Origin: Candidatus Kerfeldbacteria bacterium
Lineage (GTDB): Bacteria; Patescibacteriota; Patescibacteriia; UBA9570
Assembly: GCA_016182495.1 (NCBI GenBank)
Contig: JACPGK010000019.1
Location: 1 to 63,545, forward strand
DNA length: 63,545 nucleotides
Direction: 5' to 3'
Shown: piece by piece, positions 1 to 63,545 of the stretch
Layout: the number at the start of each line of letters is the position of its first letter
Position numbering within the stretch: position 1 is the stretch's first letter
Notes under the pieces: generated by a model
What the model was told of the DNA's origin: nothing
Database searches by the model: none
What the model saw: the letters and a program-made list of their open reading frames with translations, nothing else
Made by a program: the position numbers and the translations under genes

Positions 1-1
1 C

Positions 2-244
2 ACTAACTTAATTGAACTCTTCAATTCACATTTTAATGCACGATTACGGACACTGAAAGGATTTAAAACCGAACAGCATGCACTACTGTGGTTAAACGGT
101 TTAATTCTAAGACGACGAAGTAAAAATTTTACCGACTGCAGCCCAAAGTTTAAATATCTTAATGGGAAATGTTCATTACAGGTCAGCTTAAAACCAGGTC
201 TTCAATTCCCTGAAATCTTAGGTGTACAAGCACCCAATATTTAA
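2..244 (+). CDS. DDE transposase, C-terminal part (5'-partial; continuation of the ORF that runs off the window at 63545)
   Basis: Open frame from nt 2 to TAA 242-244 (..TNLIELFNSHFNARLRTLKGFKTEQHALLWLNGLILRRRSKNF..). The first 52 nt are identical to the window end, so the frame joins the 62.7-63.5 kb ORF. Confidence 0.8.
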   Translation, partial: TNLIELFNSHFNARLRTLKGFKTEQHALLWLNGLILRRRSKNFTDCSPKFKYLNGKCSLQVSLKPGLQFPEILGVQAPNI

Positions 245-7182: not shown

Positions 7183-9384
7183 TTAAACAATCGGCGCTTC
7201 AAAGGTTTCTTCTTTACCGCCAACCTGATTAGTATTCTCTTCATCGCTATACAGTTGAGCCATTAACGTATCAATTTCAGCCAATGAGATAGCATACTGT
7301 TGACGATTATAATCGATAATATTTTGAGCGAAGTTTGGTTCCGGAATCGACGGAACATCTACGGTGATAGCCGAAAACGGCTGGGTAGTTTGACCTTCCA
7401 CACTCATTTTGATTAACATTTCGCGCACGCCAAGATTAATAAAATCTTCGGTGCTAAAAATAGGGGTAAATTCATTCGATAAATAGGTACCATCATCAGC
7501 CCCAACACGCATAGCAATAATTGAACCGATATTACCAAACACCGTGCCTTTAATGCGGGCAGGTACTTGAGCTAAATATTGGTGTGAAATAGTCAGTAAC
7601 AAACGATATTTACGCGACTCGGATAAAATATTTTCAAAGGTTTCAGTGGCAAAGTTTTGGAATTCATCAATGTACAGGTAAAAATCTTTCCGTTGTTTCT
7701 CGGGTAATTTAGCCCGTTCCATAGCTGTTTGATAAATTTTAGTAATCATCATAGCTCCCAGTAAAGCGGCGTTTTCTTCACCCAAGCGGCCTTTGGATAA
7801 TTCAATCAACACCACTTTTTGATTATTCATGATATCATCAAAGCTGAATTTATTTTTCGGTTGCGCCACAATATTGCGAATTAAGTGGTTCGATAAAAAC
7901 TGACCTAGTTTATTAACCAACGGCAGAATAGCTTCATTATCAAATTTTTCGGACCAGCTGGAAAATTCATTGGCCCAAAAATGTTTTACCACGGAATCTT
8001 TAATTTCCGGGATCACTTTTTGTCGAAATTTACGATTCGTTAACATTTTCATCATGCCGACAATGGTTGATTCTGGATAATCTAACATAGCCAGAGTAGT
8101 GTATCGAAACACATGTTCAATTTTTGGCGACCAGTCACCACCGAAGAATTTTTCAAATACCTCAATCAGGCCTTGAGTGACTTGTTGCTTCATATCCAGC
8201 GATACGTTTTCTAGAGGATTAAAAGCCATTGGCCACTCAAAATCGGCTACATTAAAATACACGATATCTTTCATCTTACGTTCTGGTATGTACTTGATGA
8301 TATCTTGAATCAAGTCACCGTGCGGATCCATCACGCAGACGCCTTTATCTTTAATAATATCGTCGATAATAAAAGTTTCCAATAATTTTGATTTACCAGA
8401 ACCAGATTTACCCACTACATACAAATGGCGCCGGCGGTCATCACGCCGAATACCAAATTTTGTTTTAATTCCGCGAAAATTAGTATAACCAAAAAAAGTG
8501 GCTGCATCAGCTGGTGTGTTATTGGGCGTAGGCAAATTAAAAGGAGGTTGGGCTCGTTTCGATAGCACCCAGTTAATGGCCGGTAACTTTAAGCGAGGAT
8601 CAGGAATATGAAACAGTGAGGCGATTTCTTCTTGGGTCAAGACAATCCGTTTTTCTAAATGACGCTGGACAAAATCTTTAATAAACTTTTGCGTTTCTGG
8701 TATAGCGGTAAATTTAATTCTATTTTTTTCCGCTGAAAATTCATGAGTAGACCGTTGAATTTCATCAATTCGCTGTTTAGCTTTAACGCTATCGGCTTCT
8801 GGAAAGAAATAAATAAAGCGCATAGCGGCATCGAATTTTGGTAATTCTTGCGATTCACCGCTGCGTTTACTTTCGCCATAGAATAAACCACTCGATTCAC
8901 TGTCGAGTTCTTCATTTAATGGTTGCAACACCAGCTGGAACCACACCGCATGACGAGCCGGAATAGAAGAAATAATATTGATAAAAGAACTCAATGGATC
9001 ACTCGGAGCCGTGGTTTTATAGGTACGCAGTGAGTACTGTTCATTTTGAGCTAAATCCATGTAATAGGCCAAGGCATGATCTGGCACATGTTCCAGATCA
9101 TTAAACCGTTCGATCAGTTCAATTTCAGTATCTGGAAACACCGAAAAGATCATATTCTTCATGGTGTTAGCGTTGCTTTTGGCAGTGGTAATGTAGAAAT
9201 TTAATTTATTATGGATTGAAATTACTTCGCAGGCCAGTAGAGCATTTTGGCCGGTTTCATTTTTCAGTAAATAGTAAAAATTATGAAACAAACGTTCAAA
9301 TTTGCCGATATGATCATCAATCGGCGATAGCGGAAAACGCATTAATAGCGTAGCACGATTATCCATCAATTTATATTTTAACAA
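7183..9384 (-). CDS. FtsK/HerA/TraD-superfamily P-loop ATPase, type IV secretion coupling-protein-like
   Basis: 733 aa with Walker A LYVVGKSGSGKSKLL followed by VCVMDPHGDL, Walker B-like DFYLYIDEFQNF, and a C-terminal ..LLLTISHQYLAQV.. motif as in TrwB/VirD4-type ATPases. Confidence 0.75.
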   Translation of the reverse strand: MLKYKLMDNRATLLMRFPLSPIDDHIGKFERLFHNFYYLLKNETGQNALLACEVISIHNKLNFYITTAKSNANTMKNMIFSVFPDTEIELIERFNDLEHVPDHALAYYMDLAQNEQYSLRTYKTTAPSDPLSSFINIISSIPARHAVWFQLVLQPLNEELDSESSGLFYGESKRSGESQELPKFDAAMRFIYFFPEADSVKAKQRIDEIQRSTHEFSAEKNRIKFTAIPETQKFIKDFVQRHLEKRIVLTQEEIASLFHIPDPRLKLPAINWVLSKRAQPPFNLPTPNNTPADAATFFGYTNFRGIKTKFGIRRDDRRRHLYVVGKSGSGKSKLLETFIIDDIIKDKGVCVMDPHGDLIQDIIKYIPERKMKDIVYFNVADFEWPMAFNPLENVSLDMKQQVTQGLIEVFEKFFGGDWSPKIEHVFRYTTLAMLDYPESTIVGMMKMLTNRKFRQKVIPEIKDSVVKHFWANEFSSWSEKFDNEAILPLVNKLGQFLSNHLIRNIVAQPKNKFSFDDIMNNQKVVLIELSKGRLGEENAALLGAMMITKIYQTAMERAKLPEKQRKDFYLYIDEFQNFATETFENILSESRKYRLLLTISHQYLAQVPARIKGTVFGNIGSIIAMRVGADDGTYLSNEFTPIFSTEDFINLGVREMLIKMSVEGQTTQPFSAITVDVPSIPEPNFAQNIIDYNRQQYAISLAEIDTLMAQLYSDEENTNQVGGKEETFEAPIV

Positions 9385-9415: not shown

Positions 9416-10225
9416 CTAGCTGGAAGTTCGACAGACAATCACTCGATCAAGTCCAGCTAAATCTTTACTGACAACCACGCTAGCTTTTGGAAAATAATGT
9501 CGACATAATCGGTTGACTCGCATAGCTTGACGATAACCAATTTCAAATATAATACTGCCGCTAGGCTTAAGATAATAGTGAGCTTGTTGCAGAATGCGCT
9601 CAATAATTTTGGTAGAGTTTCGGCCGGCAGTTAAAGCCAAGCGTGGCTCAAACTGTAGTTGGCGATGGTTAGCTTCTGTGCCAGTCAGGTAGGGCGGATT
9701 TGACACAATCATATCAAGCTGATGCTTGAAGTACTGTGGCAAGGCGGCTAAAGCATTGCCACAATAGCTGGGAATAGTCACCTGGTGTGTACGGGCATTG
9801 CGTCGCAGCACACGTAAAGCCGCTGGCGAAATATCTGTGGCTAGTACACGCGTAGTTGGTAATAATTTTTTTAAGACAATGGCAATATTACCACTACCGG
9901 TACCAATATCAGCTATAGTGTGAATTGGTTGATTGACATTACCACAGTATTGTACAACGGTATCAACCAGTAGTTCAGTATCAGGCCGTGGTATTAAAAC
10001 ATCACGATTCACGATAAAATTTAATCCGTAAAATTCTTTATGGCCGGTAATATAGGCTACCGGTTCGTTTTGCTCACGACGGTGCAGATAGTTGAGCAAT
10101 TTTTTCGCTTGCCGAGTGGTCAAAGTATACTCTGGATGAGCATATAAAAATTCTCGTGGCTGCTTGATAACGGAGGCTAATAACACATCAACATCTAATC
10201 GCCGCCCAGTATCACCAATGGTCAT
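9416..10225 (-). CDS. prmC: release-factor glutamine N5-methyltransferase
   Basis: 269 aa with the SAM motif [13 protein letters not shown] and catalytic IVSNPPYL. Its start overlaps the prfA stop (ATGA). Confidence 0.9.
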
Positions 10226-11295
10226 AAATTCTGCAACAGCATTTTGTAATCTTCTTCGCGCAAGGCTGTTAGTAGTGGCTGGAGGTTGCCTTCGAGAATC
10301 GGATCAATATTATTCCAACTTTGTTTAATGCGATGATCGGTAATACGATCTTGGGGAAAATTATAGGTGCGAATTTTTTCTGAACGATCACCCGTGCCTA
10401 TTTGCGATCGTCGAGCGGCTGAATTTTTTTTCAAATCGGCCTCGCGTTGCATTTCAAACAAACGTGATTGTAATACTTTAAGGGCCTTAGCTTTATTTTT
10501 GTGTTGCGATTTTTCATCCTGACAGGTTACAATCATACCACTGGGTAAATGAGTAATACGCACAGCTGAATCGGTGGTATTAACACTTTGACCACCATGA
10601 CCCCCCGATCGAAACACATCGATGCGTATATCATTCGGATCAATGGTAATATCTATTGCGTCGGCTTCAGGCAGTACCGCTACGGTAACAGTTGAAGTAT
10701 GAATGCGACCAGATTTTTCGGTGGTCGGTACTCGCTGTACTCGGTGAACGCCCGATTCATATTTCATACAGGAGTAAACATTATTTCCGGTAATTTCGAA
10801 AATGATTTCTTTAAAACCGTCTAAATCGCTATGATTGGCGCTTAATAAACTGGTGCGCCAACCTTGGGTTTCAGCATAGCGACTATACATGCGGAACAAC
10901 TCGGCAGCAAATAAGGCGGCTTCATCACCACCGGCGCCGGCCCGAATTTCTACAATGATATCTTTACGATCAAGCGGATCTTTTGGCAGCAGCGTAATTT
11001 CAATGGCTCGAACACAAGCAGCTTGATCAGTATGCAGACGATCTAATTCAGTTTGAGCCAGTTGCTGTAATTCAACATCGCTGTCATCATGAGCAGTACG
11101 CTCGGCTTCGGTTAAGGCGCGTTCAATAGTGAGCAAGCGATCAAATAGCACTATTTTTTCTTTGAGTTCATCGTACTCTTGGGCATATTTTTTAAAGCGC
11201 GTTTGATCTTGAATCAAAGTTGGTTGCTGTAGTTCCTGCTCAAGCTGGGCAAAACGCTGGCGCAGTTGTTCAATTTTGAGACGGATAGAATCCAT
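10222..11295 (-). CDS. prfA: peptide chain release factor 1
   Basis: GGQ motif ([13 protein letters not shown]) and the RF1-type tripeptide region [17 protein letters not shown]. The likely start is [11 protein letters not shown] at 11295; the track start 11355 adds an implausible leader. Confidence 0.93.
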
Positions 11296-11361
11296 AAATA
11301 ATATAGTGTGAACATAAAACTCCTGCTCAATGCAACAGGAGTACGTGATGATCAAACCTAG

Positions 11362-29646: not shown

Positions 29647-29842
29647 TAATTTCCAACACTAATCCGCTAACAATTGCTAGTAAGCCAAGCATACCTAATA
29701 CTTGCTCTTGTTTCATTTCTCGAAACACAGCTTTATCAATTTTATGTTCTTGCCACACTCGGTGATGTACTCGTAAGGCAGTATATCCCACCATTACTTC
29801 ACCAACGGTTTGAATAATACGGCCTAGTAAAAATAACGACAT
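29633..29842 (-). CDS. small 2-TM membrane protein (hypothetical)
   Basis: 69 aa with hydrophobic ends and a basic middle; convergent with the BNR gene and overlapping it by 14 nt. Confidence 0.4.
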   Translation of the reverse strand: MSLFLLGRIIQTVGEVMVGYTALRVHHRVWQEHKIDKAVFREMKQEQVLGMLGLLAIVSGLVLEIITAS

Positions 29843-29958
29843 AAATTTATAGTGGTGTCCCTATTGTATCAAATTAGAACCTATTTTCAAAACAAAGTGA
29901 ATAGTTACTTTGGGCGTCATTATGTTCGCAGTAGCACTCGCGCGCCCAACAACGCCAG

Positions 29959-30135
29959 TCATCCGTCGTAGTCGATGCCCTTGTGGGGACTGTCCGAATA
30001 CGTGTAGATCCATCCCTGCTGCAACTTGACTTCTAGATCATCAAATGGATAGAACAGAAAACCATCCGATGCGAGCGCCGTGTGGGCATCGTAGAAAAGG
30101 ATCGCAAGACCGGCGAACGCCAGAGTCAGCCGCAT
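29959..30135 (-). pseudogene. possible N-terminal fragment of an M23-type peptidase (58 aa)
   Basis: Not in the track. Has a strong SD (aggaggataggtg ATG). MRLTLAFAGLAILFYDAHTALASDGFLFYPFDDLEVKLQQGWIYTYSDSPHKGIDYDG*: signal-like N-terminus ending just after an H-x-G-I-D motif (M23 HxxxD). ~60% GC. Confidence 0.35.
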
Positions 30136-31078: not shown

Positions 31079-31300
31079 ACAGTAGGGGTCACTTTAGTCT
31101 TGTTGTCTGAAAAGAAGTCGCTGGACGAGAAAATGGCGCGGATTGAACAAAAGCAGAATGATTGGCTCGAACCGATGAAAGAATGGATAAAAGTCGCTTC
31201 AAACCTCGTCAAAATCGCAAGGGATAGCAACCTTTTGGAGAAAAAGGTTGCCGCCAAAGAAATCTTTGGCTCGAACCTGCGCTTGGCGAGCCGCGCCGTG
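31079..31300 (+). pseudogene. 3'-terminal remnant of a large serine recombinase gene
   Basis: ..LSEKKSLDEKMARIEQKQNDWLEPMKEWIKVASNLVKIARDSNLLEKKVAAKEIFGSNLRLASR.. is collinear with the C-terminus of the intact recombinase at 55664-57220 (..WLELSLQLISDANLAKK....NFIKKIGSNLLLRER..). The frame opens right after a stop at ~31076 and has no catalytic domain. Confidence 0.55.
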
Positions 31301-31382
31301 CGCGGCGAGCCAGTGTTTCCCTATTCAGCCGCGCGAAGCGCGGCCAATCTCGTCGGGCAAATTCCCGAAAGTCAAATTCTGA

Positions 31383-31466
31383 TGGGCAGAGAGGGATTCG
31401 AACCCCCGAAGACCAAAGGTCGCTTGGTTTACAGCCAAGTGCGATTGACCGCTCCGCCATCTGCCC
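31383..31466 (-). tRNA. tRNA-Tyr (anticodon GTA), type II long variable arm, no encoded CCA
   Basis: Minus strand gggcagatggcggagcggtcaatcgcacttggctGTAaaccaagcgacctttggtcttcgggggttcgaatccctctctgccca: acceptor gggcaga/tctgccc, anticodon stem cttgg/ccaag, loop ctGTAaa. Confidence 0.9.
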
Positions 31467-31596
31467 ATAATAGCAACTACGCCCCTTACATATACAGGAA
31501 CTAAAAAGAAATGTAAAGTAAACAACAGCATGCCTTCAACCGAACGTCTGGCCATAATGATTATTGCTAGTAAAGTGTTTTATCGTCACAACTCAA

Positions 31597-50383: not shown

Positions 50384-50445
50384 ACAAGGTATTATACGAC
50401 GAATGTCTTAGATTGCCTAGTTTATTATTTGACGTAATTTCTGTT

Positions 50446-50467
50446 GGACGAAATTCGAGGATTTTTT
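50446..50467. repeat. 22-bp junction motif ggacgaaattcgaggatttttt, copy 1
   Basis: Identical 22-mer at 52057-52078. The 13-bp core ggacgaaattcga is also present inverted at 55441-55453. Confidence 0.85.
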
Positions 50468-50475
50468 ACAGAGCG

Positions 50476-50915
50476 TTAGCGCGCTTGCGTGACGAGAGGC
50501 GCGTCTACCCATGTAACCAAAGACTCGTCGTGAAGCAGTTCAACTGTTAGAGAAGAGGGTGGTGTGAAGTCTGTCGTGTTGAAGAAAATATTGAAGAGAC
50601 TTTTCGTTGTGGTTTGCAAAGTTTCCGTACCGGTGCAGCGGCCGGCAGACACACGGTCAAAAAGGTTGTACTGAAAATAGAGTCGGTCTTTTGACTTGCT
50701 GACGTTTGCGTTAAGATCCAGAGCGAGCTGATCATTGTCAAGTTCTACCTCGGATTGAGCTGTTGTCGTTGTGCGCAGGGCGCCAGCCGCGTTTGATAGA
50801 TTTCCGGGTTGCTGTTTTTGGAGCAACGTTGAAATAGCGAAAGCTCCAATGATAGCCGCAACTGGAGGATAATAATGAGCTCAATGATATTTTGATTGGC
50901 AGAAAGCGTTGCCTA
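50476..50915 (-). pseudogene. degraded type IV pilin/pseudopilin-like gene (frameshifted N-terminus)
   Basis: One frame reads ..NIIELIIIL.. (50867-50893). The adjacent frame continues VAAIIGAFAISTLLQKQQPGN.. into the 116-aa ORF, which together form a class III signal/hydrophobic helix split by a frameshift. No Met start. G+C is higher than the flanks. Confidence 0.35.
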
Positions 50916-50969: not shown

Positions 50970-51950
50970 CTATTTTTTCAACAATTGTAACACTAACCGC
51001 ACCATGCGTTGTTTATTTTTCGGATCACTTTCAGCAATCAGCAATGTTAGAACCGTTAACGCTGCTGGGGTTATTTTAGATGTATTGAGTAACCGAGCTT
51101 TTTTCAAAAACCAAATAAACGCATACGCCCCACTACGCTTATTACCATCCACAAACGGATGATTTTTGATCATAAAATATAACAGATGAGCTGCTTTTTC
51201 TTCAATCGTTGGATAAACCGCTTTACCACCAAACGATTGCATTACATTTCCAATAATACCTTCAATACTGCCTGTATTTTTTTCTAAAGCAAAAATATCC
51301 GTAGTCTCGCCTTTGCGGATTAACTCCTGTTTTAACAACGCTAAAGCAGTGATGAACTCGTTGGCATTCAGTTTTACAGATTTTTTGCTGGCACCAACAT
51401 CAGCTAATGCGTCTCTATCATAAGCATCCAATGAAAGCCAAGTATCAGCAAAAGTTGAAATTAATTCTAAAACGTCCCCATGAGAAATATTAGATTCCAC
51501 TGGCAATAACTGCTTGATGTTTTCTATAGCTTTTTGAAATTCTGTGTAGTTATGTTTAATGCTTGTTTTGTTGATTGTAAATCCTTTCGTGATGTGCTCA
51601 CGCAAAACTTTAGTTGCCCATTTACGAAATTCTATGGCGCGTTTAGAATTTGTACGATAGCCAAGCGCAAGAATAATATCTAAATTATAAAATTGTACTT
51701 GATAAATTTTTCCATCATTTCCAGTATGTGCAAAATTTGCACATACTGAACGTTCATCTAGTTCCTTATCTTTTAAGATATTTCTAATATGCTTAGTGAC
51801 TACCGAACGCTCAATATTAAAAATATCCGCAATCTGTGTCTGGTTTGCCCAAATCGTATCTTTCTGAACATCACCCTTCAGCTTAATCGCACCAGTTTTA
51901 GTTTGATAAATCACTACCTGATTGTTTGGGAATTTCTTTGGCTTCATATC
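50970..51950 (-). CDS. RhuM-like N-terminal domain fused to Fic/DOC domain
   Basis: From MKPKKFPNNQVVIYQTKTGAIKLKGDVQKDTIWANQTQIADIF..YNLDIILALGYRTNSKRAIEFRKWATKVL (RhuM pattern). The C-terminal Fic motif is HPFVDGNKRSG. Confidence 0.85.
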   Translation of the reverse strand, partial: DMKPKKFPNNQVVIYQTKTGAIKLKGDVQKDTIWANQTQIADIFNIERSVVTKHIRNILKDKELDERSVCANFAHTGNDGKIYQVQFYNLDIILALGYRTNSKRAIEFRKWATKVLREHITKGFTINKTSIKHNYTEFQKAIENIKQLLPVESNISHGDVLELISTFADTWLSLDAYDRDALADVGASKKSVKLNANEFITALALLKQELIRKGETTDIFALEKNTGSIEGIIGNVMQSFGGKAVYPTIEEKAAHLLYFMIKNHPFVDGNKRSGAYAFIWFLKKARLLNTSKITPAALTVLTLLIAESDPKNKQRMVRLVLQLLKK

Positions 51951-52056
51951 GATACATTGTACTCTAAAAATAGTGGCTTGACTACGATATAACTGCATCG
52001 CAAAATGCTACTAAGACTAAATTAGTTCGAAAGTCGTTTACTTGGCAGTCCTTGTC

Positions 52057-52078
52057 GGACGAAATTCGAGGATTTTTT
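52057..52078. repeat. 22-bp junction motif ggacgaaattcgaggatttttt, copy 2
   Basis: Identical to 50446-50467. Confidence 0.85.
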
Positions 52079-52099
52079 GAGAAAAATCCAGAAGGGTAA

Positions 52100-52140
52100 G
52101 CCCGGCGGAAGGAGGGGTGTGGGGAGGAATTCCGCCGGGC
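52100..52140. other. 11-bp-stem hairpin (gcccggcggaa ... ttccgccgggc) inside the left IR arm
   Basis: Perfect 11-bp stem. Its counterpart at 55362-55405 has gcgcggcggaa/ttccgccgcgc, a compensatory C:G to G:C swap. Confidence 0.6.
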
Positions 52141-52370
52141 TAGAATGCGTTTAATCTGCTTGAATCAAATATCCATCTTGCCAGGAATAGGCAAAGGGTG
52201 AATACAAAAACTGATGTGGCTGGGTTAGTGAATGCGTCGGCAATTTTAATTCTTTCACAATCGGGTGAAGTTCTTCACGATTGGAGAGAATGGTTCACTT
52301 ATGGTCTTGTAATTATAGCTATTTTATGGTAAATTTCTTCTAATGAATCTAGAAAAATATACTTATCATT

Positions 52371-55352
52371 ATGCCTCGTAGTCCGGATATTGTTGGTTTT
52401 GGTCGCGGAAGAAGTGTGGATCAACGCGGACGACTACGTCAAGAAATTGATGAGTCTGGGCATGAGAAATTGGAAGATGATCAAGAGCATGGAGAAAAAG
52501 AAATCTTGTTTGCGCGTGGCTTAGAATTATTCGGCCGAGGTTTAGATAGAGATGATTTTCAGACGGGAGATAATTTTGCGTCGGCCTATAATCATATTAT
52601 CGAGGTGCTAGACCCCAAATTATTGGCTGAGCTTGATTTTTGGGAACGCATTTTTGCTCAATATGAAAAATGTATTAGCGCGGTAGGAGTCTTTGCAGCA
52701 TTGCCTCACCATATTCAGGATAATCCAGATATTCAAGCATACTTTTTTTCTAGGCCACATTTTAACACTCCTTATCTGCCACGCACGGTTATGGAGAGAG
52801 TAGATGCGGACTTAGTGGTACCGAAATGGTTAGAGCTGGGAGTTAGTGAGCATACTTTTTCTCAAGCACCCTGGAAACATTTTGATCAAGATCAAAAACG
52901 TCAATACGTTACAACAGCACTCGAAGCCAGTATTCCTATACGAGTGCTCGATGGCACACGCCGTGAATTTATTGATGCCATACCGAAAGATGAATGGAAC
53001 GGCATTGCACGAGAACGTTACCAAGCCGATCCAGATGCGATAGCTGTGTTGGTTAAAGACGATTTTGATCGCGCTACCGAACTTTTTTCAATGGAAGATT
53101 TAAGAACTTCTTTAGAGCGCCCGGTTGAACGATGGGGAGCTGTTGGCATCGCTGCACCGCCACAATTTGCAGGATTGTCCCTACCCTTACTGCGTCGTCT
53201 TGGTTTTGAGGAAGACAAAATAGATACCTGGAAGAGCATAGTCGCACAACCAAATAGCAACCTTGATAGTGGTTTTCATGATTTTGAAAAGATGACATCA
53301 GCCGACCGTGATTGGATTCTAGGACAGTTAGAAACCCGCGCTCAAGTACTGGATGCGGGCTATCAAGCATTTGTCGGCGAGACATTACCAAAATTATTAC
53401 GTAAATTAGCGCCAGCGGCCGTAGAGAAAACGCTTGAGACCCTGCAGCCTCTTTTACGTGAGTGGAATTTACCGACTAGAGATGTTGCAGATGGTATTTT
53501 GAAGCCTACCATAGAGAGTCAAGGAGCGTCGGCTTTTCGCACCTATGAGATACTCGCAGAAAGAGTAGATTGTTTTGATGCTGGAGATATTACTTTGCTG
53601 AATCTATTATGTCCAAACAAAGAGTCAGCCAAGGTTTTAAGAAACCTCATGTCAAAAACTGGAGCTCGTTTTCAAGATTTCATGGCTTTTTATTTGGATA
53701 CTCGGTTTGGTAGAGACCGCGCCGGTGTATTAAAAGGCGCGGGCGTCCCTTTGTCAGATGAAAAGAATATCGTCATTTATATTGACTCACGTTTACCCTG
53801 GACACCCCCATATTTTAGAGAGTTTGAAACTCGTATTGCGTCTGGCAAGAATTCCAGGGTGGTTGCCGAGGAGTTAGGTCGAGAAGTTCAGACACAGATT
53901 CAGCAAATTCAAGCTGGCAAGTGGCCAGAAGACGGATTAGATGACAATAAACTAGGATTGCTATCACACGTTTTTCCTCCAGCACTCGGGGTATCGCGTA
54001 ATGAATATGCCCGTCTGGTTAGGCGCCGCGAAGATAGGCAAGATGATATTCCAGTAGAGTGGGACGCGTTGCAAGGTAAAATAATCTCGTTTCCAGTTGG
54101 CAAGTGGGAATTACAAGCTGACGCACAATTTGAAACGGCACCATGGAGTCGACTAAGTGAAGTAGTAGCAGATGTAAATGGCAGAAAAATTATTCCTGAG
54201 GATAGAGAAACGCAGCAAACCAATGAACTTGTACTCGGTCCTAATCGCATTATTGAGATCGGTCGTGAATTTGCGCGAATACTCACTGATAATAGCGCTA
54301 GCGCCACAAAGAATGCTTTACGCAACGGCTATGCTGTCTTTTTATTGAGGGGGGGGTCCAAGCTGCCTGAGTTTGTATCTGGCCGTGAGGAGGCTGTCCG
54401 CGTATTTGAATGGTCCAAAGATGCACTGCGGGATACCGTGGACCACGCCTTGCGCATGTATCGCGAAGCCAATGCAGCCTCATTTGATGATGATATAGCC
54501 CAGGCAACCAAGCGAGAAGTACCGCCTCGGGCTAAACGTGGCATTGTGAAGGGAATTTTGGGTATTCTAAAACACGAGACTATGGCCAGAGAGGAGAAAT
54601 CACAACGTATCAGGACGATCCTGGCTACTGCTGGCGTAGCGCTTGAGGGTGATATTGTGGGACAGCTACAACCAACTGGTGATCAGTCAGTATTGACGGA
54701 AGAAGGGATTACATTATCGTTAGATCAGTTATTGGCCGGAGCACAGACTAAAACTGCCGAAGCTGGAAAGTTATCTTCTATTATCGTGCAAAAATTACTT
54801 GGCGCAGAGGCTGAGACAATGGAAAAAGAACTTGACAAATGGACCTTTGTGGAAGGAGCTGAAGGAGGAGAGCAACGCACTATCCGATTTGAAATTACAA
54901 AACGTAAACTCCATGCAGTTGCTGGATTAAATAGTGGGGTCTGTGTGGCAGTTGACGACCAGTTATGGAATAAACCTGACTTTGCAAACGTGGTCATGTT
55001 TGCAGATGATGATATTGCCCATGGTGGTATGCATTTTGAGATTGTTCAAGATGGTGGCAAAAAGTATCTTTCTTTACCAGGAATAAACCCAAGTCTCACC
55101 TTATTACGCGAAGTTGACCCGCAACGTGTAATTCAAATGATGTTGGAGTATGCCAAAGCTTGTGCGAAAGCGATTGGTGCAATTGGAGTGCTGATTCCAA
55201 CCAATACAATTATTCTCTCCAACCGTGAAGAACTTCACCCGATTGTAAAAGAATTAAAATTACCGACGCATTCACTAACCCAGCCACATCAGTTTTCGTA
55301 TTCACCGTTTGCCTATTCCTGGCAAGATGGATATTTCGTGAAGGCAGCCTAG
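52371..55352 (+). CDS. 993-aa orphan protein, no recognisable domain
   Basis: Single long ORF. G+C is visibly higher than the neighbours. Its last ~47 codons lie inside the right IR arm. Confidence 0.8.
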   Translation: MPRSPDIVGFGRGRSVDQRGRLRQEIDESGHEKLEDDQEHGEKEILFARGLELFGRGLDRDDFQTGDNFASAYNHIIEVLDPKLLAELDFWERIFAQYEKCISAVGVFAALPHHIQDNPDIQAYFFSRPHFNTPYLPRTVMERVDADLVVPKWLELGVSEHTFSQAPWKHFDQDQKRQYVTTALEASIPIRVLDGTRREFIDAIPKDEWNGIARERYQADPDAIAVLVKDDFDRATELFSMEDLRTSLERPVERWGAVGIAAPPQFAGLSLPLLRRLGFEEDKIDTWKSIVAQPNSNLDSGFHDFEKMTSADRDWILGQLETRAQVLDAGYQAFVGETLPKLLRKLAPAAVEKTLETLQPLLREWNLPTRDVADGILKPTIESQGASAFRTYEILAERVDCFDAGDITLLNLLCPNKESAKVLRNLMSKTGARFQDFMAFYLDTRFGRDRAGVLKGAGVPLSDEKNIVIYIDSRLPWTPPYFREFETRIASGKNSRVVAEELGREVQTQIQQIQAGKWPEDGLDDNKLGLLSHVFPPALGVSRNEYARLVRRREDRQDDIPVEWDALQGKIISFPVGKWELQADAQFETAPWSRLSEVVADVNGRKIIPEDRETQQTNELVLGPNRIIEIGREFARILTDNSASATKNALRNGYAVFLLRGGSKLPEFVSGREEAVRVFEWSKDALRDTVDHALRMYREANAASFDDDIAQATKREVPPRAKRGIVKGILGILKHETMAREEKSQRIRTILATAGVALEGDIVGQLQPTGDQSVLTEEGITLSLDQLLAGAQTKTAEAGKLSSIIVQKLLGAEAETMEKELDKWTFVEGAEGGEQRTIRFEITKRKLHAVAGLNSGVCVAVDDQLWNKPDFANVVMFADDDIAHGGMHFEIVQDGGKKYLSLPGINPSLTLLREVDPQRVIQMMLEYAKACAKAIGAIGVLIPTNTIILSNREELHPIVKELKLPTHSLTQPHQFSYSPFAYSWQDGYFVKAA

Positions 55353-55465
55353 CGCATTCTAGCGCGGCGGAATTCCTCCCCCTAACCCCCCTCCTTCCGC
55401 CGCGCTATTCCGCTGTGTTTGAATTTTGGATATAATATATTCGAATTTCGTCCGCTAAGGACTGC
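55212..55465. repeat. right arm of ~250-bp imperfect inverted repeat
   Basis: See 52045-52291. It ends with tcgaatttcgtccgctaaggactgc, the reverse complement of the left-arm outer terminus apart from 2 mismatches. Confidence 0.85.
55362..55405. other. 11-bp-stem hairpin (gcgcggcggaa ... ttccgccgcgc) 10 nt after the ORF993 stop; possible terminator or recombination structure
   Basis: Perfect stem, C-rich 22-nt loop, no downstream T-tract. Confidence 0.5.
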
Positions 55466-55614
55466 ATAGAAGTACATTGTGAAAATTGGTGACCTCCCGC
55501 GCCGCAGCCGCACGCGCGTTTGGCCAATAGCTCCCAGGCATTTTGCCAAACGAGCCCCACCTTCCGCTCGCGCAAAAGGAGGTTCGGCGCCGGAACGGCG
55601 CAAACAAACCTCAA
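55405..55614 (-). pseudogene. inverted 3'-terminal remnant of a serine recombinase gene
   Basis: The minus-strand frame reads ..NLLLRERKVGLVWQNAWELLAKRACGCGAGGH.., versus ..NLLLRERKVGLAWQNAWELLAKRACGCGARGH.. at the end of the intact gene. There is no upstream catalytic region. Confidence 0.65.
55498..55586. repeat. GC-rich 89-bp inverted repeat, left copy
   Basis: Its reverse complement equals 57006-57094 except for 2 adjacent substitutions (tt vs cc). Confidence 0.9.
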
Positions 55615-55663
55615 TATTTCAAAAAGTGTTTAAGCCAATCTTTTTAAACCCAAAAGCGATATT

Positions 55664-57220
55664 ATGAAATATTTCATCTACGCTAGAAAATCCACAGACG
55701 AGGCCAACCGGCAATTACTGTCTATTGAGGCACAAATTGCTGAACTACAAGAATTGGCAACTAAAGAAAGGTTACAAGTAATAGAAATTCTTACTGAATC
55801 CCGAACAGCCAAAGAACCCGGTCGGCCGATCTTTAACGATCTCTTGCGGCGTATTGAAAACGGTGAAGCTGCCGGAATACTGTCGTGGCATCCTGATAGA
55901 CTGGCGCGTAATTCTGTTGACGGCGGGAAGATTATTTATTTGGTGGATACCGGCAAGCTTCAAGCACTTAAATTTTCGACATTCTGGTTTGAGAATACGC
56001 CGCAAGGCAAGTTTATGTTAAATATCGCTTTTGGGCAGTCAAAGTATTACGTTGATAATCTTTCAGAAAACGTGAAGCGAGGTTTGCGTCAGAAAGTGCG
56101 CCGTGGAATATTGCCCGGTCGTGCGCCGCTTGGGTACCTAAATGACAAAGCCAATCATACTGTTATTCCGGATCAGCAAAAATTCAAACTTGTGCAAAAA
56201 CTTTTTGAACTGTACGCAACTGGCGACTATTCACTGCAAGCTGTTAGTCATGCTATTGCCGAGTTAGGTCTAGTTAGCCCAAGCGGCAAACCGCTGGCTA
56301 TTTCCAACACCCAGACTATTTTGCAAAATCCATTTTATTACGGCGCACTAAGGTTCAACAGCGAATTGTACGAAGGCAAACACGAGCCAGCGATTACCAA
56401 GCAAATGTATGACCAAGTGCAAGCGGTCATGCAACAAAAGGCTAAACCAATGAAGAAGCATTCGTACTTTGCTTTTCGAGGATTATTATTGTGCGGTGAG
56501 TGCGGGGGAAGCATTACATCTGAACGCCAAAAAAGACACGCCTATTATCGCTGCACAAAGAAACTGGGTAAATGTATGCAACCGTATATTCGCGAGGAAC
56601 TTTTGGCTGACCAGCTCAAAGCTTTTGTGCAGCAAGTGTCGATAGATGACCAACTGGCTAGTAAAATGTCCGCCTACCTCAAAGAACAGGCAAATAAAGA
56701 TAACTCCTCCGCACTCACCGTTACCGAAAAACTCGAAAAGCAAATAACTGAAAGTAAAACCAAGCTTGACCGCTTGCTAGACGCTCATCTGGAAGGCGCG
56801 ATTGATAAAGAAACGTATACTACCAAAAAGAATCAACTGTTGAATCAAAAGATTGAGTGTGAACAAAAATTACAAACTTTCAAGCAAACATGTAATCGCT
56901 GGCTCGAACTTTCGTTGCAATTAATTTCTGACGCAAACCTAGCCAAAAAAATACCTTTGACTGGAAATTTCGAAGAACTTCGTAATTTCATTAAAAAGAT
57001 TGGCTCGAACCTCCTTTTGCGCGAGCGGAAGGTGGGGCTCGCCTGGCAAAATGCCTGGGAGCTATTGGCCAAACGCGCGTGCGGCTGCGGCGCGCGCGGG
57101 CACGAATTGGACACTTGTCTTGGATGGCAGTCGTGGCGTGACGTTATTAGAACTATAGTAGATAACTACTTAGAATTCAAGTTTGCTGCAAGCTATATTC
57201 AGACTTACTTTACTTCGTAG
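55664..57220 (+). CDS. large serine recombinase (resolvase catalytic domain + recombinase domain + zinc ribbon + coiled coil)
   Basis: 518 aa. The N-terminus MKYFIYARKSTDEANRQLLSIEAQ.. carries the catalytic Ser. Also ..SWHPDRLARN.., the zinc ribbon LLCGECGGSITSERQKRHAYYRCTK, and a long C-terminal coiled coil. Confidence 0.92.
   Translation: MKYFIYARKSTDEANRQLLSIEAQIAELQELATKERLQVIEILTESRTAKEPGRPIFNDLLRRIENGEAAGILSWHPDRLARNSVDGGKIIYLVDTGKLQALKFSTFWFENTPQGKFMLNIAFGQSKYYVDNLSENVKRGLRQKVRRGILPGRAPLGYLNDKANHTVIPDQQKFKLVQKLFELYATGDYSLQAVSHAIAELGLVSPSGKPLAISNTQTILQNPFYYGALRFNSELYEGKHEPAITKQMYDQVQAVMQQKAKPMKKHSYFAFRGLLLCGECGGSITSERQKRHAYYRCTKKLGKCMQPYIREELLADQLKAFVQQVSIDDQLASKMSAYLKEQANKDNSSALTVTEKLEKQITESKTKLDRLLDAHLEGAIDKETYTTKKNQLLNQKIECEQKLQTFKQTCNRWLELSLQLISDANLAKKIPLTGNFEELRNFIKKIGSNLLLRERKVGLAWQNAWELLAKRACGCGARGHELDTCLGWQSWRDVIRTIVDNYLEFKFAASYIQTYFTS
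57006..57094. repeat. GC-rich 89-bp inverted repeat, right copy (inside the 3' end of the recombinase gene)
   Basis: See 55498-55586. Confidence 0.9.
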
Positions 57221-62589: not shown

Positions 62590-62595
62590 TAAGGA

Positions 62596-62617
62596 TACCG
62601 TTAAATTTTGGGTGCTT
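62596..62617. repeat. IS left terminal inverted repeat (IRL) taccgttaaattttgggtgctt
   Basis: 21/22 match to the reverse complement of 228-249; begins 7 nt after the stop of the preceding gene. Confidence 0.75.
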
Positions 62618-62682
62618 AAAACATTGTCTTCTTGGCTAAGGTCTGCTAGATTGAACCACTTTAACTGGTTAAACGATCTCAA

Positions 62683-63545
62683 TATGTTAAAAAAAACATC
62701 CTCACTGTCCGACCTGTAACAGTGCGTTCACAATAAAACGCGGTAGTCGCCGTGGAATAAATAGATATTTATGTAAGAGCTGTCATGGCTCTTTTTCAGT
62801 TGACCATGGCCGCAAAGACGAACTGTTGTGGATCCCACACATCGATGGTATCCCGTTTCGCAAACTCGGCGATGAACATGGCCTGTCTGGTGTACAAGCC
62901 TACAACCGTGTCTTTGCTGAATTAGCGCAGCTACCAAAAGTCATCGACATCACCAAACAGTATTGCCGATACACCTCTGGTATCCTCATCATCGATGGAA
63001 AATATATTAAAGTGAAAGGGTTCAAACACAAAATACCGTGGCTCTATGCCGTCGATTACGAAACCCACGACATCCTGTTTGGCATGGTTGCTGAAGCGGA
63101 AGATATACAAACCTTTGAAGCGTTCTTTACCATTCTCAAAGGATTGAATTACCCTTTACGTGTTGTCGTGGCCGACGACCGTTCTAGCTTGCCCCTAGGG
63201 CTTAAACGCATCTATCCGGAGATACCGGTGCAACTGTGCCAGAATCACTACTTAGAAAATATTCGACAACAACTCCATATCCGTACTGATGCCCTGCACC
63301 AGCATTTTTTTAATTCCCTGAAACTCCATGTGTTTGCTGAGTATGAAAACGATACCAAACTCAATAATGCTTTGTATCATGTCTTCACAGAACGGTGTGA
63401 AGGGTTGGTAGTTCGTCAAAAAATTGTCCTCGAGATTTCCAAACGACGCCACGAACTGTTTGCCTACACAACGATTCCAAACTGTCCAAACAACACTAAC
63501 TTAATTGAACTCTTCAATTCACATTTTAATGCACGATTACGGACA
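62683..63545 (+). CDS. DDE transposase (N-terminal Zn ribbon + MULE-like catalytic domain), 3'-partial at the window edge; start separated from the main frame by a +1 shift in an A8 run
   Basis: The main frame from 62690 reads KKHPHCPTCNSAFTIKRGSRRGINRYLCKSCHGSF...LIIDGKYIKVKG...VVVADDRSSLPLGLKRIYPEIPVQLCQNHYLENI...NNTNLIELFNSHFNARLRT. It has no start codon in that frame. ATG 62683 (MLKK) is in the +1-shifted frame across aaaaaaaa at 62688-62695. Confidence 0.8.

Follow-up and report, generated by a model that had tools for sequence, protein, structure and literature searches.

Long inverted repeats bracket a large serine recombinase gene in an apparently undescribed family of tRNA-associated mobile elements of Patescibacteria

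In a 63,545-nucleotide (nt) contig of a Candidatus Kerfeldbacteria bacterium (GCA_016182495.1, JACPGK010000019.1, positions 1 to 63,545 of the forward strand; this whole stretch is called the window below), an intact gene for a large serine recombinase (LSR) is found on the plus strand at 55664..57220, bracketed by two long inverted repeat arms. The predicted protein of 518 amino acids carries the catalytic motif YARKSTDE, which includes Ser10 and is nearly invariant in the family alignment, and matches the Pfam domains Resolvase (PF00239, 2.8e-19, residues 4-148), Recombinase (PF07508, 1e-14) and Zn_ribbon_recom (PF13408, 6e-11). It thus shows the N-terminal resolvase-type catalytic domain with its serine nucleophile, followed by the C-terminal recombinase domain and zinc ribbon; the invariant positions of the family are present as well, and a coiled coil is probably inserted at about residues 325-430. 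By this predicted architecture the protein is a member of the LSR family and differs from the small serine DNA invertases (Hin/Gin/Pin), which have about 190 amino acids and a C-terminal helix-turn-helix. An exact look-up of the protein in the contig index returned no record.

Self-comparison of the window showed that 55498-55586, once reverse-complemented, is identical to 57006-57094 apart from two neighbouring positions, 55549-55550 (AA versus GG), where a GTT codon stands against GCC (LVW versus LAW), so that the 89-nt arms are 97.8% identical. The first-pass annotation had described a pair of GC-rich 89-bp inverted repeats with two adjacent substitutions, derived from the 3' end of the recombinase gene itself, and each of these points was borne out: the G+C content of the arms is 67-68% compared with 42% for the window, the right arm (b', 57006..57108, plus strand, with the near-perfect core at 57006-57094) corresponds to codons 448-482 of the recombinase, and the left arm (b, 55484..55586, minus strand) is an inverted copy of it that differs at 55549-55550 and in the outer 14 nt. 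The sharp collapse of identity that had been placed directly after gcggcgcg holds only as a drop, since the repeat is prolonged at reduced identity to 103 nt (55484-55586 and 57006-57108, 94%, BLAST within the window, E = 2.8e-39) and weak similarity extends beyond it at the protein level, where residues 436-496 of the recombinase match 55623..55441 on the minus strand (tblastn, 65% identity, E = 5e-19). An inverted pseudo-3' end of the recombinase gene (55408..55623, minus strand), composed of arm, core, a conserved "natural tail" (..MQSLADEIRIYYIQNSNTAE*) and stop codon, contains the left arm; it is recognised by the hidden Markov model (HMM) of the family C-terminus (E = 4e-6) and is arranged in the same way in nearly all relatives; read on the minus strand, the left arm continues into ..GHQFSQCTSMQSLADEIRIYYIQNSNTAE* and then into a GC hairpin. 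The right arm codes for ..SNLLLRERKVGLAWQNAWELLAK.., which falls within a C-terminal region conserved throughout the family (..SNxLLRER..W.ILA..), and is therefore native coding sequence and not an inserted element. The idea that the arms are a GC-rich mobile insert placed twice, resembling a miniature inverted-repeat transposable element, was accordingly dropped, as the block encodes family-conserved residues and the window holds no further copy of it. A structured RNA or a tRNA fragment in the arms was likewise rejected, Rfam being blank at gathering and E-value thresholds and ARAGORN being blank there. An exact 45-mer of the arm gave zero matches in JGI metagenome contigs. In Logan contigs from four groundwater runs, contigs end exactly at the 89-nt arm and the depth of the arm is raised, as expected of a genuine inverted repeat.

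Homologues of the recombinase are numerous (more than 7,800 proteins in the databases), those with a named host belonging to Parcubacteria, Microgenomates and other members of the Patescibacteria, or Candidate Phyla Radiation (CPR), and at least 579 relatives were confirmed in species-representative genomes. The family is rare in viral contigs, with only two close matches in IMG/VR. To compare the geometry, 80 loci from the species-representative genomes were surveyed, most of them in metagenome-assembled genomes built from short reads, and 46 had enough flanking sequence to be evaluated. A bracketing inverted repeat of at least 50 nt was present in 43 of these 46 Patescibacteria loci and in none of 32 distant phage-type LSR loci from IMG/VR, which served as a negative control. 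As a rule, one arm precedes the start codon by about 20-250 nt and the other spans the 3' end of the gene; arm length ranges from 50 to 160 nt, and 39 of 69 arm pairs are 100% identical. The inverted repeat is thus a hallmark of the family and no local accident. Many contigs of the family begin or end within an arm or hold the unit alone, which follows from the repeat being longer than the k-mer of the assembler. Short-read assemblers carry a general risk of producing fold-back contigs, and this is all that speaks for a chance match or an assembly artefact; given the within-window E-value, the same graph structure in four independent runs and the same geometry in loci from many studies, including the two complete genomes L032 and L051, we regard the probability of this explanation as negligible.

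The outer boundary of the repeat coincides with a tRNA gene in most relatives. The right arm borders on a tRNA gene of the minus strand at 41 loci (Gln 21, Ser 11, Asn 7, His 1, Arg 1), the two overlapping by 2-8 nt (mode 6), and in most relatives the outer end of the arm is a core of 4-12 nt that matches the tRNA gene's 3' end. At nearly all loci the gene in place consequently reads into antisense tRNA (..RGWDSNPR*, ..RDSNP.. and alike), the conserved Trp codon TGG being the antisense of CCA, and the upstream inverted copy instead continues to a conserved tail, xLLNEIRTFFxENPDAEF*, and then to a hairpin. Where the neighbouring cargo unit is fully visible, three sites share one core, namely flank-core-tail, tail'-core'-arm (inverted) and arm-core-tRNA; the core common to these site types measures 4-12 nt, usually reads TGGC(T/G)G and has the minimal form GC(T/G)G, which confines the crossover to 4 nt. 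LSRs cross over at a central dinucleotide of 2 bp, and their attP x attB reaction runs in one direction unless a directionality factor is present. Counted from the T of TGG, a second motif, YCGAAC, occupies +25..29 in the tail arm and +20..24 in the tRNA arm, where it is the antisense T-loop (35 loci). The same displacement is known from LSRs, whose zinc-ribbon motif is shifted 5 bp inward from the element site (attP) to the target site (attB) (PMC3783163), and the outer half-site motif of this family is likewise 5 bp nearer the centre in attB. The 5-bp shift identifies arm-core-tail as attP-like, the tRNA end as the attB half and arm-core-tRNA as a hybrid junction. CGAAC is fixed as DNA, and the codon ahead of it varies among Ile and Val codons.

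The core is positioned about 18-30 codons ahead of the natural stop, so that the attachment (att) site of the element would be inside the recombinase gene; the crossover core would be the last nucleotides of the target tRNA, with antisense CCA read as the conserved Trp codon, and integration would thereby fuse the gene to antisense tRNA. The first-pass annotation had proposed that the crossover lies in the 3' end of the gene, and the relatives, whose arms end at a core equal to the tRNA 3' end and whose open reading frame (ORF) runs into antisense tRNA, support that part of the proposal. The flanks hold inverted copies of the core and no direct duplication, and the elements are inserted at tRNA 3' ends in 41 loci instead of at many different sites, which distinguishes them from an insertion sequence (IS) or transposon with terminal repeats and a direct target duplication. 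Nor do the sites resemble the short Hin/Gin/Pin sites of about 26 bp with a central crossover, as the arms measure 50-160 nt and the putative core is at their outer end or beyond; an enhancer was not searched for. Taken together, we consider it probable, though by no means settled, that these are Patescibacteria-specific, tRNA-targeted integrative elements driven by an LSR, with the repeat as their defining architecture.

The inner boundary of the repeat is marked just as precisely. The arms of 37 loci have their inner start 0-3 nt inside the TCGAAC of invariant Gly-Ser-Asn codons, which in the window form the box GGCTCGAAC (57002..57010, plus strand) at the inner edge of the right arm. This GSN box, GGYTCGAAC, is nucleotide-invariant in the family and is fixed even at synonymous positions: Ser is encoded by TCG in 68/68 genes (background 20%) and Asn by AAC in 67/68 (background 38%). 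A second invariant box, TGGCTCGAAC (56900..56909, plus strand), covers Trp-Leu-Glu (WLE) codons and precedes the GSN box by about 100 nt; it has this form in 46/59 genes and reads YGGTTCGAAC in 13/59, and the Leu codon CTC has a background of 19%. The T variant occurs in a comparable number of genes at either box, 13/68 at the GSN box and 13/59 at the WLE box. The GGYTCGAAC boxes are similar both to the T-loop of tRNA in antisense and to the half-site motif of the att sites. Directly inward of its left arm the window has a hairpin (GCGCCG-GAA-CGGCGC, 55587..55601), and most of the 69 loci have such a hairpin with a stem of 5-8 bp and a loop of 3-4 nt, often GAA; the sequence of the stem varies and its pairing is kept. 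Further inward, an inverted copy of the KKIG(S)N box (55628..55647, minus strand) forms the inverted repeat I2 with 56991-57010; between it and the left arm is an insert of 41 nt, hairpin included. Past the natural tail a different hairpin with a conserved G-run loop (GGAAGG(A)GGGGG-TT-GGGGGGAAGGAA) flanked by GC-rich stems was observed at window positions 55360-55407 and 52101-52140, at 2190-2240 in L059, and in L013, L041, L044 and L005; a strict pattern finds it in 7/44 loci, and visual inspection revealed variants in L034, L064, L067 and L115. It possibly serves as a terminator in both directions or as a binding site. In a subfamily with the motif KNIGSNFIL (L034, L064, L040, L065, L067), the stretch just past the terminator hairpin and ahead of the cargo gene holds copies of both the GSN box (27-30 nt) and the recombinase 5' leader, and the cargo of this subfamily seems, from the arrangement of these copies, to reuse the recombinase leader.

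The two arms of an element evolve in concert. Median arm identity is 100% when the two arms of one element are compared and 92.9% against the nearest other element, and identity within the element exceeded that between elements in 29/33 cases. The arms are richer in G+C than the gene body in 61/69 loci (medians 0.51 versus 0.41), an excess that would be compatible with GC-biased conversion. Direct evidence for exchange came from two elements of one ENA sample series, L117 and L118, which show 11 differences over 6,681 nt of left flank and recombinase, all of them in the two repeats: six are located in the left tail arm and shift that arm toward the tail newly adjacent on the right, and five are located in the distal right arm and place an exchange point inside the arm. 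L117 differs from L118 by a block of defence genes between the arm and tRNA-Gln, that is, by a presence/absence polymorphism of a cassette at the core. The first-pass annotation had read the near-identity of the repeats as a recent event or ongoing gene conversion, and it is in the sense of gene conversion that the concerted arms and the L117/L118 pair support it. In the protein clusters of P0041, P0027 and P0108, some proteins differ from otherwise identical ones by a short stretch (ADLPAELAG, or AHTNFSEEKLGGL) inserted in frame in the part encoded by the arm, which makes the arms a hotspot for insertions and deletions as well.

Cassettes and arrays are recurrent. The cassettes of relatives carry, among others, GmrSD, an N6/N4 DNA methylase, a MORC-like ATPase, DruA/NurA/HerA, a multicopper oxidase and an enolase, and cargo cassettes are bounded by inverted repeats of their own (100-290 nt) built from tail and hairpin. 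L051 contains an array with an intact distal recombinase, a cassette and a frameshifted recombinase beside tRNA-Ser, and L013 contains two tandem recombinase 3' ends. Serial or nested integration, one of two explanations offered by the first-pass annotation, is thus backed by arrays with decayed units and by the cassette polymorphism at the core. A role of the repeat at the RNA level was also considered, in which the left arm of a read-through transcript would base-pair along about 100 nt with the arm in the 3' coding region and block expression of the recombinase. The near-perfect complementarity of 89-103 nt, located 78 nt upstream of the start codon and within the 3' coding region, and the conserved hairpin after the left arm would fit such a role; however, no Rfam family matched, pairing neither needs 100% identity nor yields gene-conversion tracts, and the ending of the arms at the att core as well as the same geometry of the cargo cassettes would be left unexplained. 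We therefore judge it very unlikely.

In five loci the orientation is reversed: a plus-strand tRNA gene is located directly upstream of the left arm and the recombinase gene is directed away from it. Four of these five have relatives in the usual orientation that are 90-95% identical at the DNA level (L068/L044, L022/L018, L030/L009 and L025/L021). Moreover, L067, a locus assembled in full, contains a recombinase with natural tail and hairpin, and in clusters of proteins at 90% identity one body and arm is followed by the natural tail in some contigs and by varied tRNA-antisense tails in others. The pair L115 and L116, with recombinase units 99.8% identical and the tail arm on opposite sides, was considered as proof of a flip in situ and then downgraded, given that the L115 contig begins in the left arm and its cargo differs past 340 nt; it may be a cassette-insertion variant like L117. 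The first-pass annotation had suggested that the recombinase gene itself is invertible, and the comparison of near-identical elements in both orientations, together with gene conversion in the repeats, agrees with this to the extent that comparison allows.

A programmed, site-specific inversion of the Hin/Gin kind, carried out by the recombinase at the cores or at the GGYTCGAAC boxes so that a toggle between a full-length and a tRNA-fused gene would control mobility, could account for both boundaries of the arms being sharp, conserved and marked by motifs, for two alternative 3' ends of which one is conserved, and for the occurrence of both orientations among close relatives. Yet reciprocal site-specific exchange has no homogenising effect, and the arms are homogenised and include a conversion tract; the tally of orientations is skewed 41 to 5; and, according to PMC3783163, LSRs are not known to recombine attP with hybrid sites in the absence of a directionality factor. 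Such a dedicated switch appears improbable to us.

The explanation that we favour combines integration by the recombinase with homologous recombination in the arms. An intact spare 3' end (GGYTCGAAC box, core, conserved tail and hairpin) is kept in inverted orientation upstream, so that the gene body between the two identical arms could be connected to one 3' end or the other. The arms stay identical through gene conversion and homologous exchange with each other, and the same arm-arm recombination would have to flip the gene body at some rate: perfect inverted repeats of 100-150 nt placed 1.5 kb apart would be expected to flip by RecA-type recombination, with the gene alternating between a tRNA-fused end and the natural tail. 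The arms would at the same time serve as portable homology for swapping neighbouring cargo cassettes. Extended to a function, this would be a very abundant, integron-like system driven by a serine recombinase, in which the integrase gene is a phase-variable, invertible cassette that exchanges its C-terminal tail upon integration at a tRNA 3' end and whose RecA-type flip restores the full-length gene and sets the rate of excision or spread, and in which the arms exchange defence cassettes between hosts; we put this forward tentatively, as a possibility that may well prove wrong.

Several observations weigh against the favoured explanation. With orientations found 41 versus 5 times, free flip-flop fits only if one state is favoured, and the skew suggests that the tRNA-fused state is the stable one. 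The flipped loci could equally be explained by integration via the other attP copy. The conserved tail may be kept as a DNA half-site and not as a peptide, in which case two protein isoforms need not differ in function. Canonical LSRs are not known to act on attP paired with attL or attR, and the recombinase itself may therefore not catalyse the flip. Logan contigs, assembled at k=31, are unable to span the 89-nt repeat or to link sequences across the arms. Finally, the copy in the window does not adjoin a tRNA gene and its motifs are degenerate, and it may therefore be inactive.

A different origin of the repeats deserves more weight than a dedicated switch. The arms could be the halves of a palindromic att site of an IS-like recombinase module, whose arm-core-arm circle inserts at any core in either orientation, with cassettes moving likewise via tail-core-tail; the repeats would then be left by serial insertion and no switch would exist. 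In line with this, the repeat of every unit ends exactly at the shared core and neighbouring arms overlap by the core, and the invariant GC within GC(T/G)G is a palindromic dinucleotide that would abolish the polarity of the site. The DNA homology of the window to L001 and L002 ends where the arm does on its outer side, which in the comparison with L001 is position 57108. The depth in run X3 is 14.6 for the recombinase unit, at most 6.4 for the flanks and 0 for the neighbouring cargo gene ORF993 (see below), so that the unit is present there in another context. For the L018 subfamily, hundreds of short contigs at least 95% identical to the unit (positions 1-1840; runs X17, X21 and X23) add up to a depth in the hundreds to thousands in metagenomes from hot springs, groundwater and soil, and the flank past the tRNA has no coverage. 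Against the module stands the finding that the left arm is nearly always joined to a tail arm and seldom to unrelated flank, from which it follows that recombinase unit and tail arm travel together. In addition, the core-proximal 25 nt of the arm are devoid of YCGAAC and arm-core-arm would hence be a poor LSR site; the junction expected of an arm-core-arm circle was not found, the only candidate being a single contig in X21 that joins the outer parts of the L018 arms (91->1694) and looks like the scar of a gene-body deletion; the exchange point of L117 is located within the arm and is thus homologous and not site-specific; and the invariant box at the start of the repeat is left unexplained. 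Although such a module would explain the shared cores and the arrays and is the main rival of the explanation that we favour, we consider it unlikely.

The copy in the window is predicted to be an internal, slightly decayed member of an array consisting of the ORF993 cassette, the recombinase unit and low-G+C cargo to the right. Its closest relative among the matches listed, L001 (88% amino acid identity), is inserted at tRNA-Trp, with the core ATGCAG followed by antisense tRNA-Trp; no tRNA-Trp junction was found in the window. Alignment with L001 places the predicted crossover region within the recombinase ORF at site 1 (core TGGCAG, 57125..57130, plus strand), which is 17 nt past the end of the 103-nt repeat and 30 nt past the 89-nt block; a natural-like tail follows, and the zinc-ribbon-type motif is degenerate (AGAAC at +25..29). 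With its inverted counterpart at site 2 (core ATGCAG, 55462..55467, minus strand), an intact attP-like copy that has CGAAT at +25..29, this moves the crossover away from the gcggcgcg breakpoint at which it had first been sought. Site 3 (core TGGCAG, 52043-52048) is attP-like too and follows about 20 codons of the arm of an older recombinase (HMM match at 51974-52096 on the plus strand, E = 0.003), so that, by their motifs, all three sites in the window are predicted to be attP-like.

ORF993 (52371..55352, plus strand), the cargo of the neighbouring cassette, has no Pfam or PADLOC match. As already noticed in the first-pass annotation, it mirrors the geometry of the recombinase unit, being bracketed by an inverted repeat of 255 nt (85% identity) between a left arm (A, 52045..52291) and a right arm (A', 55212..55465). 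The right arm comprises the 3' end of ORF993, the shared GC hairpin (55360-55407) and the reverse-complemented recombinase tail, each arm holding the last 45 codons of ORF993 in addition to hairpin and tail. A diversity-generating retroelement was considered for this repeat and rejected, as its mismatches are of all kinds and include insertions and deletions and as the repeat runs past the stop codon into the hairpin; the scanned neighbours include no reverse transcriptase. A decayed 3' remnant of another recombinase of the family, which had also been recognised early on, is found at 31079-31501 (plus strand, family C-terminal HMM E = 5e-16), where 31100..31346 was assigned to it, and reads toward tRNA-Tyr (31381-31467, minus strand) through a canonical junction. 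Weaker tail-like scars were seen at 29837-29968 and 50438-50476, the latter being a 26-nt direct repeat of 52053-52078.

The surroundings of the array look like a defence island, judging from the predicted genes. A RhuM/Fic-domain gene beside the array (50970-51998, minus strand) matches the PADLOC candidate defence family PDC-S23 (E = 2e-107), and the segment at 57.2-60.4 kb, with about 30% G+C, encodes a Schlafen AlbA_2 protein and proteins with weak TIR-like and QatB-like matches. Elsewhere in the window are a HerA/TrwB-like ATPase gene (7183-9384) and a gene for a 1,470-amino-acid protein with an ABC1 kinase-like domain, and close to both, 9416-11355 (minus strand) encodes a peptide-chain release factor with an adjacent methyltransferase (prfA/prmC-like), which suggests that the window is chromosomal. 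The ends of the window (1-52 and 63494-63545) are identical over 52 bp and lie in a transposase-like ORF (..TNLIELFNSHFNARLRTLKGF..). The depth of the transposase-like stretch (62594-63545 and 1-243) is 3-7 times that of the adjoining sequence, and an alternative left flank connects to it at 62594; it is accordingly a multi-copy insertion sequence, which makes the apparent circularity of the contig unreliable. A free circular episome, which would account for attP-like sequence on either side of the unit, was therefore not established, and the window is more likely a chromosomal segment bounded by a multi-copy insertion sequence.

The system combines traits of several known ones and, apart from the LSR family, is a member of none of them, since either the type of recombinase or the architecture of the site differs. 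With phage and integrative LSRs (phiC31, Bxb1, A118/LI, SPbeta SprA, TnpX/TndX) it shares the domain architecture, the short core and an outer motif placed 5 bp farther out in the element arm; unlike in those systems, the att site is inside the ORF, the targets are the extreme 3' ends of tRNAs, a second site and 3' end are found inverted upstream, perfect repeats of 50-160 nt surround the gene body, and the cargo cassettes have inverted repeats of their own. SSV1-type archaeal integrases have attP within the int gene, which is split by integration into a tRNA gene. The site within the integrase ORF, the tRNA target and the alteration of the gene upon integration are thus alike, the latter two in the relatives, the window copy not being at a tRNA. 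However, SSV1-type integrases are tyrosine recombinases (archaeal tyrosine recombinases are reviewed in PMC8371274) that are split near the 5' end, share a long identity with the tRNA and lack a spare inverted copy, whereas here a serine recombinase exchanges its last ~18-30 codons, the identity is limited to the core of 4-12 nt and a spare 3' end is retained. Invertons that swap 3' ends (the Gin/Cin/Pin tail-fibre systems, the R64 shufflon and hsdS) likewise feature inverted repeats in coding sequence, alternative 3' ends and arrays of units; in these, the recombinase (a small serine invertase or the tyrosine recombinase Rci) is separate from the varied gene, the repeats are short and the ends variable, whereas here the recombinase itself is varied, the arms are long and homogenised, and the ends are either the conserved tail or the neighbour at the integration site.

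The yeast 2-micron plasmid with FLP and the plastid inverted repeats also have two long identical repeats that are maintained by recombination and give flip isomers. FLP, however, is a tyrosine recombinase on a plasmid that flips for copy-number amplification, whereas the structure described here is integrated in chromosomes. Integrons, too, associate a recombinase gene with an array of small, often single-gene and promoter-poor cassettes, many with defence or accessory functions, that turn over at a defined site. In integrons this is achieved by IntI, a tyrosine recombinase acting on folded single-stranded attC sites; here the enzyme is a serine recombinase, the cassettes are bounded by 100-290-nt inverted repeats with an LSR-type half-site, and homologous exchange takes place in the arms. 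In the literature searched, which included a paper on type IV secretion in Patescibacteria, we found no prior account of such an architecture and no counterpart of a design that unites an att site in the recombinase gene, an inverted spare 3' end, long arms evolving in concert and cassettes with their own inverted repeats, and these elements apparently represent a large, undescribed family of mobile elements of Patescibacteria.

Much of bacterial diversity belongs to the Patescibacteria, and gene acquisition by their small genomes is little understood. Recombinase bodies that are at least 90% identical at the protein level, and visibly near-identical in clusters 5 and 7, adjoin a wide range of tRNA sequences, a pattern indicative of recent transfer between hosts. 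That these recombinase genes are so frequently found on contigs of about 1.7 kb or at contig ends is explained by the repeat. The family also constitutes a large natural set of LSRs with readable attP/attB pairs that are aimed at tRNA 3' ends, and its elements ferry defence and accessory genes as small cassettes.

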